59,561 nucleotides of DNA, from contig JAKOQC010000247.1 of the NCBI GenBank assembly GCA_029778565.1, forward strand, positions 1 through 59,561, given 5' to 3'. Numbering within the stretch: the first letter of the stretch is position 1; each line of letters starts with the position of its first letter. Positions 30,828-36,535 of the stretch are shown in pieces. The position numbers and the translations under genes are program-made. Source of the stretch: a bacterium. GTDB taxonomy: Bacteria; Patescibacteriota; Saccharimonadia; CAILAD01; BJGX01. Below the pieces are notes generated by a model. That model saw only the letters and a list, made by a program, of their open reading frames with translations, had not been told where the DNA came from and searched no databases.

Positions 30828-31367
30828 ATGCTAAAAATTACTTCAGGAATATATGGGGGCCGTAAGTTAGTGCAGCCAAAGACCGATAAAACCCGTCCGG
30901 TAATGGAACGCACTCGCCATGCGATATTTCAGGTTCTTGGTGATCTTACAGGGCTAGATGTGCTCGACTTGTATGCAGGCAGTGGCGCATTGGGCTTAGA
31001 AGCTCTCAGTCTTGGTGCTAACTCGACCACCTTTGTTGATACTGCAAGAGTGGCTATTGATGCTATTAAGTCTAATTGTACGACGTTAGAGATTGCCCAG
31101 AAGGTTGTAATAGTTAATTCAAAAGTAGAAGATTTCATTAAGGCCAACCAGTCTACTTACAATATTATTTTTTTCGATCCACCATATGCCAATTTAGACC
31201 AACGTCAACTCAAACTAGCAGCCGACCAATTGGCGCCAGATGGAATACTTGTTGTCAGCTGTTCTGTCAAAACCGAACTACCAGACAAACTTGGCAAAGC
31301 CATGGTGGTTAAACTAAAAAAATATGGTGACACTCAGATTGCTTACTATAAATCTAAGAGTCTATAA
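30828..31367 (+). CDS. rsmD: 16S rRNA (guanine966-N2)-methyltransferase
   Basis: 179 aa. ITSGIYGGRKL...RPVMERTRHAIFQVL...LDLYAGSGALGLEALSLGA...FFDPPY. Confidence 0.85.
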   Translation: MLKITSGIYGGRKLVQPKTDKTRPVMERTRHAIFQVLGDLTGLDVLDLYAGSGALGLEALSLGANSTTFVDTARVAIDAIKSNCTTLEIAQKVVIVNSKVEDFIKANQSTYNIIFFDPPYANLDQRQLKLAADQLAPDGILVVSCSVKTELPDKLGKAMVVKLKKYGDTQIAYYKSKSL

Positions 31368-32712: not shown

Positions 32713-32799
32713 GCCGCGGTGGTGGAATTGGTAGACACGCCAGCCTTAGGAGCTGGTGAGGTAACACTCGTGGAGGTTCAAGTCCTCTCCGCGGTACCA
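32713..32799 (+). tRNA. tRNA-Leu (anticodon TAG), CCA encoded
   Basis: Hand-folded cloverleaf. Acceptor GCCGCGG/CCGCGGT, anticodon loop CTTAGGA, long variable arm, T arm GGAGGTTCAAGTCCTC and terminal ACCA. Confidence 0.9.
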
Positions 32800-32805
32800 T
32801 AAAAA

Positions 32806-32832
32806 ATAGCCCAGAATTTTGGGCTATTTTTT
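32806..32832 (+). terminator. rho-independent terminator after tRNA-Leu
   Basis: ATAGCCC-loop-GGGCTAT followed by TTTTT. Confidence 0.7.
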
Positions 32833-32913
32833 ATATCGTAGAAAATGATCAAACAATATATGTGGGATGGCCAGAATCAGCTTCCGAAATTATGGCGTGG
32901 TCTAGTTTTATGA

Positions 32914-32946
32914 AAATAAAAAATACCGAATCAATTGATCCGGTAT
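32914..32946 (-). terminator. terminator of minus-strand gene 33486-32980
   Basis: On the minus strand: ATACCG-loop-CGGTAT followed by TTTTTTATTTT. Confidence 0.55.
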
Positions 32947-32979
32947 ACTGTTTATAATTATAAATTGTTAAATTGTTCT

Positions 32980-33486
32980 TCAGTCATCTGCTTCATAATA
33001 GAAGAAGTCATTTACACCAAAGACAATATTACCATTTCTCTCGAGCAACAACAGAGTGTGCTTGATGATAAATTTGGTTGGAACCTCGATCGGAATACCT
33101 TTGCCTTCTCGTACTGCTAAAACTGCCTTGAGTAGTCTATCATCATCAGGTTGAGTTGGCATATGGCAGTTCTTTCGAACAACTCCGAGCACAGCTTCAA
33201 TAATCTCGGCATGGATGTTTTGTAGAAGGATTGCACGGACTTTTTGATAATCATTATATTCATCATTTGTAAACAGTCTCTCCCAAATTTTACGAAGTCT
33301 CACGGCCTCTACAAGGCTCAACCTTTGCACATCACAATGAGCAAAAGAGCAACTACGTGGCATTGTGCCATCAATAAGAGAAATGCCGCAAACTACATTA
33401 TCTTCTACGCTCGATTCTATACAAAGTACCGGGTGAAAATCGCAATCTTCATAGATATCTCCGGGGAGAATTCTATCGCTTGTCAT
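32980..33486 (-). CDS. hypothetical protein
   Basis: 168 aa. AAGGAAGG RBS and its own consensus promoter. No family recognised. Confidence 0.6.
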   Translation of the reverse strand: MTSDRILPGDIYEDCDFHPVLCIESSVEDNVVCGISLIDGTMPRSCSFAHCDVQRLSLVEAVRLRKIWERLFTNDEYNDYQKVRAILLQNIHAEIIEAVLGVVRKNCHMPTQPDDDRLLKAVLAVREGKGIPIEVPTKFIIKHTLLLLERNGNIVFGVNDFFYYEADD

Positions 33487-33518
33487 TGGTACACCTTCCT
33501 TGGGTGGAGGTCGGAGTT

Positions 33519-33547
33519 ATTCTACACTTTTATTCAATATTAGTCAA
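33519..33547 (-). promoter_or_regulatory. sigma70-type promoter of the 168-aa gene
   Basis: On the minus strand: TTGACT (33547-33542), N17, TAGAAT (33524-33519). Divergent from the RNA promoter. Confidence 0.6.
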
Positions 33548-33567
33548 TAATTTATTATTTTTGCCTA

Positions 33568-33596
33568 TTGACACAGTTTATTTGTTTTGCTACAAT
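33568..33596 (+). promoter_or_regulatory. consensus sigma70 promoter driving the large noncoding transcript
   Basis: TTGACA (33568-33573), exactly 17 nt, TACAAT (33591-33596). Confidence 0.7.
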
Positions 33597-34149
33597 CGTA
33601 ATCGCGTTTTTGAACCTTACATTTGCTGCCCTAGAGAAAATCTTGTGCAGCGATAACCAGTTTTTTCTAGAGTATTCACTAGCTTGAATGCACGGTTTGA
33701 TTCGCCTCATAAAGAATCTGGTTATCGCTGCAGAATGTAGCAACAGAAGTGTCACCGCAGTGTTCTGCGCCCCGCGAGTAATCGCGCCCTGCCCACAGGG
33801 GATCGGTGGAGTTGTTGTGTGCCCCAGAACCACACACTTGCAACTTTACCTTAATGGTCAGGTATGGGATAAACTACCAGGCTGCGGTGACACGCCAATC
33901 AGTGCCGGCTCGCCGAGAAGCGGGCGAGTACAGCGGATCGCCTGTAAATGGGGGTCTTCGCGAGCCGGCACGATTCTCCGCGCGCTAGCCTTGCCAGCTG
34001 AGCCATCTCCGGGTGGGGCCAATGCGAGCGGATGCGCCTGAGAGACCGAAGCTGTTCCAAAACGGCTGAGGTGCTAGAAGAGAGTGACCTACTCCAAAAC
34101 CACTCTTGCCCCGGTCTCTCGGGCGAAATCGAAACAGGCAACTGTTTCA

Positions 34150-34221
34150 GGGGACGAAGTTCTTGTGGAAGAACACCCGCCAGTTGGTGGGAGGTTGGTG
34201 GTTCGACTCCACTCGTCTCCA
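34150..34221 (+). ncRNA. tRNA-like module embedded in the large RNA (Ala/tmRNA-type acceptor, no canonical anticodon loop)
   Basis: Acceptor GGGGACG/CGTCTCC with G3-U70 and discriminator A. D arm GTTC-TTGTGGAA-GAAC. Anticodon arm CCCGC-CAGTTG-GTGGG has only a 6-nt loop, or forms a 6-bp stem with an AGTT tetraloop. 5-nt variable region. T arm GGTGG-TTCGACT-CCACT. No encoded CCA. Confidence 0.6.
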
Positions 34222-34368
34222 CTGGTAGTACAATCTCGACGGCGGGTTCTTCCTGTCACCGGCGGAAAGATTGTGCTCCATACCGGCTTCGGGTCGGGTT
34301 GCATTAAGGCGTGATGTTCGCTACTAGCGCCTTATGTGTAGCCCGGCTCGTTGCCGGACCATCTCGAG

Positions 34369-34396
34369 CCTCAATACATTCGTATTGAGGTTTTTT
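34369..34396 (+). terminator. rho-independent terminator of the large RNA
   Basis: CCTCAATAC-ATTC-GTATTGAGG followed by TTTTTT. Confidence 0.8.
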
Positions 34397-34493
34397 CTTA
34401 CCCGAAAAATGTTGAAGTCAGCGATGTATTATGATACATTTATAGGCATGAATACTGTTAAAACAGCTTGGTTTTATTTTACAAACTCTGTGT

Positions 34494-34567
34494 CTCGCCG
34501 AGGTGTTTTAAGCTAAACTCTAAATAATACGTATCAATGTAAGCCTCGGCGAAAGCCGAGGTTTTTT
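34494..34567 (+). promoter_or_regulatory. terminator/antiterminator (attenuator-like) leader upstream of the 34630 operon
   Basis: Terminator CCTCGGC-GAAA-GCCGAGG plus TTTTTT at 34544-34567. The upstream segment CTCGCCGAGG (34494-34503) can form 9 bp with the 5' arm of the terminator (34544-34552). Confidence 0.5.
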
Positions 34568-34629
34568 GTTGGTATTCATGTGGTTCTCTTGTTAAGTGAA
34601 TCACATCCGTACCTTCAAAAGGGGGAGTA

Positions 34630-34953
34630 ATGAGCATAAAAGTATCTCTGCAAGCATGCTCAAACAGGCAGGTAATGGTATTTACCACTAATGCAAGGCT
34701 AAGCAATCATGTACACACTGCGTTCTTTACAGCACACAATATTATCTACTCTCAGCGAGAGTTAAATAAGATTGGTGTTGTGGCCGAACAGGTAGTGCGC
34801 CAAGTACTTGCGTTTTACGAAATTCGCTCAGTATTTGTTAGTAGCAAGAGCATGAGTGTAGTGCTAAAAACTGGTAAGCAGTGGGAGACATTGCCCGACC
34901 AGATAGTGCGTATTATCGAAAAGGCACTCGATGAGTTTGGGATAGAGTTATGA
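34630..34953 (+). CDS. hypothetical protein with weak Nfu_N-like (NifU N-terminal scaffold) pattern
   Basis: 107 aa with a GGGGGAG RBS. The pattern ...VLAFYEIRSVFVSSKSMSVVLKTGKQWETLPDQIVRIIEKAL resembles ...GVKSVFFGxDFITVTK...W..L in Nfu_N domains. This is judged by eye only. Confidence 0.55.
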   Translation: MSIKVSLQACSNRQVMVFTTNARLSNHVHTAFFTAHNIIYSQRELNKIGVVAEQVVRQVLAFYEIRSVFVSSKSMSVVLKTGKQWETLPDQIVRIIEKALDEFGIEL

Positions 34954-35198
34954 GCCAGTCACTGAGTAGATCAGAGATAGTGCAACGACGTATTGAGACA
35001 TTTGCTCGCATACTTAAGCGCTATCATCCAGATTTGTACGAAAAATACAAAAACGATCTTACCGACCCCATGAGTAGACAGGCCATTCGCCAAATAATTG
35101 CTGTACGAAGACTAACAGCACGTGCGGAGGCTGCAAGACGAGAAAACGAGCGTATACAACGCGAGAACAGAAAACTTCACCGCCCATACTTTTCTTAA
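34950..35198 (+). CDS. small basic helical protein
   Basis: 82 aa, Arg/Lys-rich. ATGA overlap with the upstream gene implies translational coupling. Confidence 0.55.
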   Translation: MSQSLSRSEIVQRRIETFARILKRYHPDLYEKYKNDLTDPMSRQAIRQIIAVRRLTARAEAARRENERIQRENRKLHRPYFS

Positions 35199-35212
35199 AG
35201 TATGGGTTTTTT
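35183..35212 (+). terminator. rho-independent terminator
   Basis: CCCATACT-loop-AGTATGGG followed by TTTTTT. The stop codon is in the loop. Confidence 0.75.
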
Positions 35213-35239
35213 ATTACTCTAGAAATCTCTTACTATTTC

Positions 35240-35257: not shown

Positions 35258-36535
35258 ATGATAAAAGTTACTACCAAAAAAGCCCCCAGCCAAGTTACAT
35301 TAACGATTTCTGTAGATGAGCAGTTTATTGCTCCATACAAGCAAGCTGTCTTAAAACGCCTTAAGAAAGATTTAAAAGTGCCAGGTTTTCGCCCTGGTAT
35401 GGCGCCCGATAATCTTGCCGAAAAAGAATTGGGTGAAGCCAGAGTACAGGCAGATGTATTAGACGAAGTTATAATGCACGCCTATTCCCGAGCTGTACGC
35501 GACGAAAAACTCGAGACGGTAGCTAGTCCTAAAATTAGTCTCAAAAAATTTGTGCCCTATACCGATTTAGAATTTGAGGCTGAAGCACCAATAATGCCAA
35601 AAATTGCTTTTGATCTTAAGAAGCTAAAAGTAAAACCATTAGAGGCAAAGCTAGATAAAAAAGACATTGAAGAGACTTTGCAAGCTATGCAAAAACAAGC
35701 TGCCAAAAAGAGCGAAAAAAAGGGTGCTATTGCCAATGGTGACGAAGTAACCTTTGATTTTACCGGCGTGCGAGAAGGCAAGCCAGTAGAAGGAGCTGCA
35801 GCCACTAATCATGTACTGGTAATAGGGAGTAAACAATTTATTCCTGGCTTTGAAGACAACCTAATTGGTTTAAAAAAGGGTGACGACAAGAAATTTACGG
35901 TTACTTTTCCAAAAGACTACCATGCCAAAGACCTGGCTGGTAAAGACGTCGAGTTTACGGTAAAAATTCATAAGATAGAACAGATAGAATTACCAAAGCT
36001 AGACGATGCTTGGGCAAAAACTATGGGGCCGGTAAAGACTTTGGCCGAGCTAAAAAAAGATATCGAAAAAACACTGCTGAGCCAAAAGCAAGCGGAAGTT
36101 ACCAAACAGTACGAAAACCAAGTACTAGAAGCTGCAATTACCCAGGCTAAATTCGAAGCACCAGCAAGCCTAGTCGAAGAACAAGCTAATCATTTGCGAT
36201 CAGAAACAGAAGAAAACTTAAAGAATTCTGGTTTAGATTTAGACAAGTATCTCGAAATTCAAAAACGCAGCCGCGAAGACTTCGAAAAAGAACTCAAAAG
36301 CGAATCAGAAAAACGCGTTAAGCTTGGTTTGTTGCTCAGACAACTAATTGCTGATCAAAAAATTGCCGTGAGTGATGCCGAAATAGATGGTGAAATTCAA
36401 ATTATGAAAGAACAATACAGCGACCCACAAATGCTCGAACACATAGAGCATGATCATTTTCGTGAAGATGTACGAAACCATCTCTTAACTACTAAGGCTA
36501 TGAATGTTTTAGTAGAAGCAGCTGCCAAAAAGTAG
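35258..36535 (+). CDS. tig: trigger factor
   Basis: 425 aa. N-terminal ribosome-binding motif GFRPG, an FKBP-type PPIase and a C-terminal helical arm. Confidence 0.93.
   Translation: MIKVTTKKAPSQVTLTISVDEQFIAPYKQAVLKRLKKDLKVPGFRPGMAPDNLAEKELGEARVQADVLDEVIMHAYSRAVRDEKLETVASPKISLKKFVPYTDLEFEAEAPIMPKIAFDLKKLKVKPLEAKLDKKDIEETLQAMQKQAAKKSEKKGAIANGDEVTFDFTGVREGKPVEGAAATNHVLVIGSKQFIPGFEDNLIGLKKGDDKKFTVTFPKDYHAKDLAGKDVEFTVKIHKIEQIELPKLDDAWAKTMGPVKTLAELKKDIEKTLLSQKQAEVTKQYENQVLEAAITQAKFEAPASLVEEQANHLRSETEENLKNSGLDLDKYLEIQKRSREDFEKELKSESEKRVKLGLLLRQLIADQKIAVSDAEIDGEIQIMKEQYSDPQMLEHIEHDHFREDVRNHLLTTKAMNVLVEAAAKK

Follow-up and report, generated by a model that had tools for sequence, protein, structure and literature searches.

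We analysed a 59,561-nucleotide (nt) stretch of DNA from Candidatus Saccharibacteria (hereafter the window), focusing on a 2.4-kb block (32806-35212) that lies between a tRNA-Leu(TAG) gene and tig (35258-36535). The block contains a previously undescribed structured RNA of ~795 nt with an embedded tRNA-like element (TLS), a divergently oriented gene for a 168-amino-acid (aa) protein, a short leader and an overlapping pair of genes for 107- and 82-aa proteins. A first-pass annotation had listed six features here (the 168-aa gene with its promoter, a closely spaced divergent RNA promoter, the large RNA, an attenuator-like leader, the coupled gene pair and a strong terminator) and had suggested that they form one functional unit. 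Open reading frame (ORF), promoter, terminator and RNA scans recovered all six at the positions given below, where coordinates are those of the window and features lie on the plus strand unless otherwise noted.

Relatives of the block were collected as the contigs that encode homologues of its proteins, plus one contig from a DNA-pattern scan. Among 5.8 billion protein clusters, the 168-aa protein had four other matches, the 107-aa protein three and the 82-aa protein one. A genome scan with Tig identified two true relatives, the Candidatus Saccharibacteria metagenome-assembled genomes (MAGs) L006 and L007, in which Tig is 91-92% identical and the same block is present. The RNA falls into four clades: A (window, L001/L006, L002, L007 and L011), B (L023), C (L003-5 and L020-22) and D (L032). 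In each sufficiently long contig the order is invariant, with a 168-like gene on the minus strand followed on the plus strand by the RNA, the leader, a 107-like gene and an 82-like gene. The whole order is visible in the window, L001, L006, L002, L007, L003 and L020, while L023, L011 and L032 show the 168-like gene and the RNA as far as their contig ends. The metagenome pattern scan returned 6 loci, of which two proved real: L011, and L013, which is the L002 contig; L012 is a chance match inside a coding sequence, L015 contains only a 27-nt motif, and L014 and L016 have no similarity to the RNA. Three viral pattern matches likewise showed no further RNA similarity and no tRNA.

The large RNA (33603-34399) was assessed by minimum free energy (MFE), RNAalifold, a codon-phase test and Rfam scans. 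It is ~0.7 to 1.2 kb long in relatives, with a G+C content of 53-62% compared to ~42% in the flanks. The window RNA folds with an MFE of -364 kcal/mol (z = -13.1 against dinucleotide shuffles). RNAalifold analysis of clades A and B gave 229 pairs in ~29 helices, 45 of them with compensatory double changes, and an independent MAFFT/alifold run gave 232 pairs, again with 45 compensatory. Substitutions in the RNA show no codon periodicity (p = 0.2-0.9), and the 107- and 82-aa genes, used as controls, show codon-phase bias in most comparisons (p < 0.001, down to 3e-4). The codon-phase test thus ruled out a protein-coding reading of the G+C-rich region. A 147-aa gene has been called on the minus strand inside the RNA of L001 (5056-5499), with an equivalent ORF in L006 (4620-5063); given the RNA covariation and the missing codon periodicity, this call is probably spurious. 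Apart from tRNA-type matches, Rfam returned nothing at gathering score in the window and nothing at E<=10 with permissive filters across 33400-34700, including the GOLLD, ROOL and OLE models; seven related loci likewise gave only tRNA-type matches, and these three models were unmatched there at E<=0.1. The ~0.8-kb RNA is therefore real, structured and non-coding, and has not been described before.

Several parts of the RNA can be distinguished. Near its 5' end is a long hairpin, GCAGCGATAACCAG...CTGGTTATCGCTGC (33643-33735; inverted repeat I1, invariant columns of the A2 alignment). Both of its strands are almost invariant in clades A-C, where other helices covary, and its pairs never vary in the RNAalifold alignment; this near-invariance hints at sequence-specific recognition. 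Clade D (L032) lacks the hairpin. It is followed by a multi-branched domain (33749-33893; inverted repeat I7), closed by a 12-bp long-range helix (33749-33760/33882-33893) that is 100% paired in five lineages representing all four clades. Compensatory double changes affect 6 of its 12 pairs, a level reached by 0-1 of 500 shuffles. The RNA ends in an intrinsic terminator with a 12-bp stem and U-run (34366-34399), found by terminator scan and marked by compensatory changes in relatives. The RNA is also modular: L001, L006, L002, L007 and clade C carry an extra structured module of 150-370 nt after the position equivalent to window 33893. This module (L001:4724-5091, L002:1129-1277) holds ACAAGACCAGATA...GTTCAG and is absent from the window and L023. 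Clade C shares the module with the relatives, and its absence makes the window RNA a shortened version. The L007 RNA has a further insert of ~250 nt in its 3' domain.

The TLS (34150-34222) is a contiguous cloverleaf with acceptor, D and T arms, which ARAGORN reported as 'tRNA-???' and which matched the Rfam tRNA model at 38.5 bits (gathering score 29). Together with the folding energy, these two matches bear out the first-pass proposal of a ~0.8-kb RNA with a tRNA-like module. In an alignment of eight lineages, the acceptor stem is 100% paired, and the acceptor and T stems together are 97.7% paired. Pair 3 is G3:U70 in 8/8 lineages, spanning all four clades, while the adjacent pair 2 is variously G-C, C-G or A-U. 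Clades A, C and D have A at position 73, and clade B has G. L007 encodes ACCA, as do L003 and L020 (clade C); the window has A-CTGG instead, so that its CCA would have to be supplied once processing has taken place. As for the 'anticodon' arm, it forms a covarying hairpin whose loop has only 4-6 nt (6 nt in the window; UUCG in L007; GAAA on a 3-bp stem in clade C). This reduction explains why ARAGORN assigned 2-nt 'anticodons' or discordant identities (???, Pyl, Arg) across relatives, and a loop of this size should leave the TLS unable to decode. The anticodon stem and variable loop of the L001 TLS are also similar to those of E. coli tRNA-Ala, which is a lead and not a test. G3:U70 and A73 are determinants for alanyl-tRNA synthetase (AlaRS) and are shared by transfer-messenger RNA (tmRNA) (PMC3968760). 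From these sequence patterns, we conclude that the TLS is a non-decoding tRNA mimic, apparently selected to retain alanine identity.

The TLS resembles the tRNA-like domain of tmRNA and tRNA-Ala in its G3:U70 pair, in A73 in most clades and in a canonical T arm. Unlike the tmRNA domain, it is a contiguous cloverleaf located in the middle of the RNA, with a loop of 4-6 nt. The L007 copy matches the tmRNA model RF00023 at 29.5 bits, below the gathering score of 47. A tmRNA reading was rejected, as ARAGORN made no tmRNA call and the relatives share no short tag frame ending in AA before the stop. Towards the 3' end of clade C RNAs (L003:1190-1220, minus strand, and the corresponding part of L020), GCAGGTTCAAGTCCTGC and a subsequent CTCCCC make up another T-arm-like element, and a GGGGTAGG strand lies directly after the first tRNA-like element. 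Between them these strands enclose the 3' domain much as in tmRNA, although G3:U70 and CCA are both missing. In eukaryotes, MALAT1/mascRNA provides an example of a tRNA mimic within a larger non-coding RNA. Among bacteria, YrlA Y RNAs also have a tRNA mimic within a non-coding RNA (PMC4201824). Both are like the RNA described here in having an internal tRNA-like module expected to be recognised by tRNA enzymes. The YrlA model, however, matched at only 17.9 bits (E=1.2), there is no Ro/Rsr gene nearby, and the RNA is four to eight times the size of a Y RNA.

The conservation of the TLS raises the question of whether it could be the sole functional product, a non-decoding alanine carrier (used, for example, in cell-wall or lipid aminoacylation), with the rest of the transcript serving as leader and trailer. 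The retention of G3:U70 in every lineage despite loss of the anticodon would fit such a role, as would the encoded ACCA in some clades and, more circumstantially and weakly, the nearby murA. However, the parts of the RNA outside the TLS are equally or more conserved and hold most of the compensatory pairs, and a mere leader and trailer would not be expected to retain ~25 covarying helices. We therefore regard this explanation as very unlikely.

A different explanation is that the RNA works by itself, as a self-assembling multimer of the GOLLD/ROOL type with a covalent tRNA-like arm, and that the genes beside it are bystanders. tRNA islands lie close to GOLLD and ROOL, the GOLLD linker sometimes carries a tRNA, ROOL has no known protein partners, and the function of these RNAs is unknown (PMC12286853). 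They share with the present RNA a size of ~0.8 kb, many helices, a mix of variable and conserved parts, and adjoining tRNA genes; as a large ornate RNA to which a tRNA is covalently attached, GOLLD is the nearest analogue. The ornate architecture of our 0.7-1.2-kb RNAs, their modular variable inserts, and the combination of an embedded tRNA-like element with an adjacent tRNA gene are what such a machine might look like. The likeness stops at several points: the GOLLD, ROOL and OLE covariance models found no match even at E<=10, the RNA sits in a chromosomal housekeeping context of a Candidate Phyla Radiation (CPR) bacterium and not in a prophage, and the embedded element is an anticodon-less, alanine-type mimic instead of a working tRNA. 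On balance, we consider an RNA-only machine unlikely.

The block is organized as three autonomous transcription units, with three promoters and three or four terminators that are conserved in relatives. The large RNA has an extended -10 promoter, TTGACA-N17-TGcTACAAT (33568-33596), which agrees with 11/12 consensus positions and includes the TG. Its TTGACA and TGCTA..T elements are invariant in clades A-C, and the promoter was also found in clade D. Facing away from it on the minus strand is the promoter of the 168-aa gene, TTGACT-N17-TAGAAT (33519-33547; 10/12 consensus positions), with both boxes kept in the clade A alignment. The two divergent -35 boxes are spaced by 20 nt, so the closely spaced divergent promoters of the first-pass annotation stand, and the back-to-back arrangement is conserved in clades A, C and D. 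A generic promoter scan of the region was not above chance (4 found, 4.8 expected from shuffles); the credibility of the two promoters comes from their conservation in relatives and not from their consensus match. The 168-aa gene ends at an intrinsic terminator on the minus strand (32923-32946; terminator scan, 10-bp stem with a T-run). The third unit begins just after the RNA terminator, at a promoter read from the sequence as TTGAAG-N17-TGaTACATT (34412-34440), and closes at about 35182-35213 with the strong terminator previously noted, which was relocated by terminator scan and whose stem takes in the stop codon of the 82-aa gene.

The leader of this third unit encodes a conserved upstream ORF (uORF). 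In every clade, exactly 7 nt separate the end of a TGnTAnnnT motif from the uORF ATG, a gap that implies a leaderless message. The 22-codon peptide, MNTVKTAWFYFTNSVSRRGVLS (34448-34516), has a clade C counterpart, MKTAQTTWYYFFMNFASCRGVFK; clades A and C share the length (22-23 codons) and a W-[FY]-Y-F core, and clade B retains the start. Conservation is at the peptide level, as shown by synonymous changes, a 3-nt indel that stays in frame and the switch of a Ser-Ser pair from TCT to AGC. Within the R-R-G codons of the uORF is the strand CGCCGAGG (34496-34503), a candidate antiterminator complementary to the 5' arm, CCTCGGCG (34544-34551), of an intrinsic terminator found by terminator scan (CCTCGGC-GAAA-GCCGAGG with a U-run, 34541-34570). 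Over six sequences, terminator pairing holds in 100% of cells and antiterminator pairing in 97.9%, compared to 21-50% in slid controls overall and 27-44% in those of the antiterminator. L007 has one change that is matched by compensation across all three strands of the switch. Because variation is too low for a significant shuffle test, we rate the switch as likely and not as proven. Altogether, the leader probably works as a leader-peptide attenuator under a separate promoter, which upholds the first-pass description of an attenuator-like leader and refines it with an extended -10 promoter, a conserved leaderless uORF and an antiterminator/terminator pair.

In the proposed mechanism, the leaderless peptide with its W-F/Y-Y-F core would be translated first. 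A ribosome that reaches the uORF stop codon would mask the antiterminator (34496-34503), so that the terminator (34544-34561 with the U-run) forms and transcription stops; a ribosome stalled on the aromatic codons would leave the antiterminator free, allowing read-through into the 107- and 82-aa genes. This is similar to the trp, pheA and his attenuators, which also combine a short conserved uORF, an antiterminator in its 3' end, a Rho-independent terminator and a codon cluster (here aromatic). It differs from them in that the uORF is leaderless, the run is a mixed W-F/Y-Y-F instead of one repeated amino acid, and the genes under its control have no biosynthetic role. A 1:2 pause hairpin was not recognised in the leader. 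Inverted repeat I2 (34447-34475/34552-34580), which had suggested a stem around the terminator, is not conserved in clade C and was set aside. The idea that the leader is a T-box sensing the TLS was also dropped, with no Rfam T-box match across 33400-34700 at E<=10. No conserved base-pairing was found between the RNA and the leader; the complementary sites differ and are non-homologous in each genome, so we treat this complementarity as noise. Just 5' of the ribosome-binding site of the 107-aa gene, GTACCTTCAA (34609-34618) is invariant in all clades and partly complements a conserved TTGTTGGTA located after the attenuator terminator, making a second regulatory hairpin possible.

The 107-aa gene (34630-34953) and the 82-aa gene (34950-35198) overlap as ATGA, the start of the second within the stop of the first, in keeping with the coupled pair initially described. 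Both have homologues and codon-phase bias. The public call for the first gene is 92 aa (P0001), apparently from Met16, and the 107-aa form is supported because homologues conserve residues upstream of Met16. A weak Nfu_N-like pattern had been noted in this protein. Indeed, the Pfam Nfu_N model (PF08712) matched below its cut-off (E=5.9e-5, 23.5 bits; cut-off 27), and the AlphaFold2 (AF2) model, with a predicted local distance difference test (pLDDT) score of 89.5, had Nfu_N-type structures as its best five Foldseek matches in the PDB (2ltm, 2ffm, 2ltl, 1pqx and 2k1h; E 3e-4 to 1e-2, template modelling (TM) score 0.51-0.74, probability 0.99-1.0). This set comprises the NFU1 N-terminal domain (2ltm), SAV1430 (2ffm), SeR13 and a yeast NifU-like protein, and the best matches, 2ltm and 2ffm, each had E=3e-4 and TM 0.6-0.7. 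Model and matches confirm an Nfu_N alpha/beta fold for the 107-aa protein; we know of no RNA-binding role for this fold.

The 82-aa protein is helical, and its only conserved part is the C-terminus (...ENERIQRE..KL[HR]RPYFS). It had been described as a basic protein suited to nucleic-acid binding. It is basic in the window, with an isoelectric point (pI) of 11.1, but this character is not conserved, as the L001 orthologue has a pI of 5.5. The protein had no family match and no PDB match, neither it nor the 107-aa protein had a PADLOC, PHROG or NCBIfam match, and PDB sequence searches with the 168-, 107- and 82-aa proteins gave no meaningful match.

The 168-aa protein, encoded on the minus strand (32980-33486), is acidic (pI 4.99; range 4.3-5.0). 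Its AF2 model (pLDDT 87.5) shows a small N-terminal beta-barrel and an otherwise helical structure, part of it weakly winged-helix-like. In Foldseek, NusG-KOW and Tudor domains matched the barrel at a probability of ~1, but E was only 0.06-0.3. A viral-library Foldseek search with the model returned only generic small barrels. The protein had been called family-less, and it indeed had no match in Pfam, NCBIfam or PHROG and only a marginal methyltransferase match (12.9 bits) in PADLOC. However, its first ~65 aa fall into a widespread domain family that comprises 443 representative clusters at E<=1e-3 and has no Pfam model. Members are mostly single-domain 'hypothetical proteins' of 80-130 aa (P0012-P0160), one of them from an Alphaproteobacteria MAG, with the pattern PGDIYEDCxYHPVLC...GISLIDGSxPRSCSxxHCGV. 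The conserved residues of the barrel are C15, H18, C22, C46, H50 and C51, and we propose the family as a candidate new zinc-binding domain family. The C-terminal half, in comparison, is variable or swapped among relatives: at least two unrelated types occur within clade A, and the window's type is nearer that of clade C, which is incongruent with the RNA tree. Full-length relatives also occur away from the RNA. P0016 and P0019 adjoin a peptidase M48 gene, P0019 also being upstream of LemA, and both have an upstream spacer of only ~110 nt, no large RNA and no 107/82 pair; P0015, which is as distant as these two, adjoins the clade D RNA.

At its left border, the block begins after the tRNA-Leu(TAG) gene (32713-32799; CCA encoded, ARAGORN, Rfam tRNA 55.8 bits), which adjoins the 168-like gene in all relatives. 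Directly 3' of the tRNA is a perfect-palindrome hairpin with A- and T-runs that serves as a bidirectional terminator (32799-32834; inverted repeat I3, 18-nt arms, 94% complementary). The outer neighbours are rsmD and murA upstream and clpP, a major facilitator superfamily (MFS) transporter gene, rpoB and rpoC downstream. Extra DNA and rearrangements were seen only at the block borders, as a greA-like gene, a pre-tig insert and an inversion of tRNA-Leu. The first is a GreA/GreB-domain gene between tRNA-Leu and the 168-like gene in L001 (3273-3743) and L006 (2960-3427), with no tblastn match in the 59.5-kb window. The second, 0.64 kb between the 82-like gene and tig of L007 (5359-6000), encodes a 160-aa ORF with no Pfam match and no GreA domain. 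In L002 (9-95) and L004 (1755-1840), tRNA-Leu(TAG) lies on the strand of the 168-like gene and is thus inverted relative to the window, L001, L006, L007 and L011.

Divergence is distributed very unevenly across the region. Between the window and L001/L006/L007, housekeeping proteins are 88-93% (MurA), 91-92% (Tig), 96-97% (ClpP) and 92-98% (MFS) identical, while the 107-, 82- and 168-aa proteins are 42-62% identical, often across only a portion of the sequence. In nucleotide comparisons with L001, the RNA is 83-93% identical, the housekeeping flanks 76-91% and the coding regions of the block 43-67%. Within the region, constraint is thus strongest on the RNA and weakest on its protein neighbours. 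A second divergence valley was found at an rsmD-like gene (window 30950-31250; 55-57% nt and 61% aa identity to L001), next to murA with 93% aa identity. Protein types showed no correlation with RNA modules.

Do these components form one RNA-protein system, as the first-pass annotation suggested? The model for this would be the OLE ribonucleoprotein with its partners OapA, OapB and OapC, in which a large structured RNA has its partner genes alongside; here, the candidate partners would be the 168-aa barrel protein or, by way of a conserved basic helix at its C-terminus, the 82-aa protein. Linkage by itself raises this possibility: the order is invariant among carriers in all four RNA clades, with insertions and inversions confined to the borders, clades A, C and D retain the back-to-back promoters, and the very narrow distribution of the RNA is also that of the 107/82 pair. 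In OapB, helices follow a small beta-barrel, and members of the oapB family are present in genomes without ole as well (PMC7936274). The 168-aa protein has this same general architecture, and the RNA-less relatives P0016 and P0019 are not decisive, as oapB behaves likewise.

Nevertheless, much of the evidence points the other way. The units are transcribed and regulated separately, and full-length 168-aa relatives exist elsewhere without the RNA. The OLE RNA and proteins are not homologous to those described here, and the 168-aa barrel is acidic with a Cys/His motif instead of having a basic KOW surface; OapB was not among its best 50 Foldseek matches. The net charge of the 82-aa protein is not conserved, and the fold of the 107-aa protein is of the Nfu_N type. 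Evolution has been far faster in the proteins than in the RNA, and their C- or N-terminal types swap without matching changes in RNA modules. There is no conserved complementarity between RNA and leader, and with flanks that are 88-98% identical, plain synteny explains much of the linkage. Thus, of the single-unit proposal, the shared order and orientation in all adequate contigs stands, and functional integration is less likely than not.

The position of the block directly 3' of a tRNA gene, together with protein genes far more divergent than the flanks, might also suggest a horizontally acquired island integrated at tRNA-Leu. The first-pass annotation had already argued against a classical tRNA-integrated island, and we agree: the 3' 25-mer of tRNA-Leu is not repeated elsewhere in the window (<=3 mismatches allowed), no direct repeats were found flanking the block, and no ORF or family match in the window corresponds to an integrase. 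The block had no phage or viral match, including against 50,697 phage records, and no PHROG match. The G+C of its protein genes resembles that of the surrounding genome, and the same site is occupied in all relatives found. Integration as an island is largely refuted and scarcely credible. Instead, the presence of the same block between 88-98% identical flanks in L001, L006 and L007, without integrase, repeats or phage match, argues for vertical inheritance.

Weighing this evidence, we somewhat favor the reading that the block is a vertically inherited, lineage-specific locus of a small group of Saccharibacteria with an RNA core and three autonomous units, in which coupling of the RNA to its neighbours is unproven. 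Several observations weigh against it. The strict co-linearity of four components over four RNA clades could perhaps reflect one functional system, and the narrow distribution common to the RNA and the 107/82 pair points in the same direction. The sample is small, at about ten independent contigs, most of them 1-3 kb. With regard to alanine identity, the window TLS has no encoded CCA, and clade B has G73 and not A73. The antiterminator shows one compensatory event, and ~233 of 500 shuffles reach the observed values; its sequence conservation could stem from the peptide code.

Under this vertically inherited locus reading, the large RNA would be transcribed from its near-consensus extended -10 promoter and ended by its intrinsic terminator. 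It may act via tRNA mimicry, with the TLS recognised by RNase P, RNase Z, the CCA-adding enzyme and AlaRS. The TLS could then be either released as a non-decoding, alanine-accepting RNA or left tethered to the scaffold, like the tRNAs in GOLLD linkers. The 107- and 82-aa genes would be controlled separately, by ribosome-mediated attenuation, and the acidic 168-aa protein would be transcribed divergently from the back-to-back promoter. A more speculative extension, which we regard as improbable, is an alanine-charged, anticodon-less tRNA-mimic machine, in which the TLS, on or freed from a scaffold of ~0.5 kb, works with the co-inherited, fast-evolving small proteins as a dedicated system of ultrasmall epibiotic bacteria. 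Such a machine might have ribosome-associated, trans-translation-like or aminoacyl-transfer roles, with the operon reporting translation stress.

Only a few large ornate RNAs are known from bacteria, among them OLE, GOLLD, ROOL and HEARO, and each has revealed unexpected biology. To our knowledge, almost nothing has been described of non-coding RNA biology in the Candidate Phyla Radiation. A TLS that lacks an anticodon but keeps the wobble pair read by AlaRS is an unusually informative biochemical handle. Beyond the RNA itself, the locus offers candidate protein partners, a widespread 443-cluster Cys/His barrel family outside Pfam and, for a CPR bacterium, a probable attenuator with a leaderless leader peptide.

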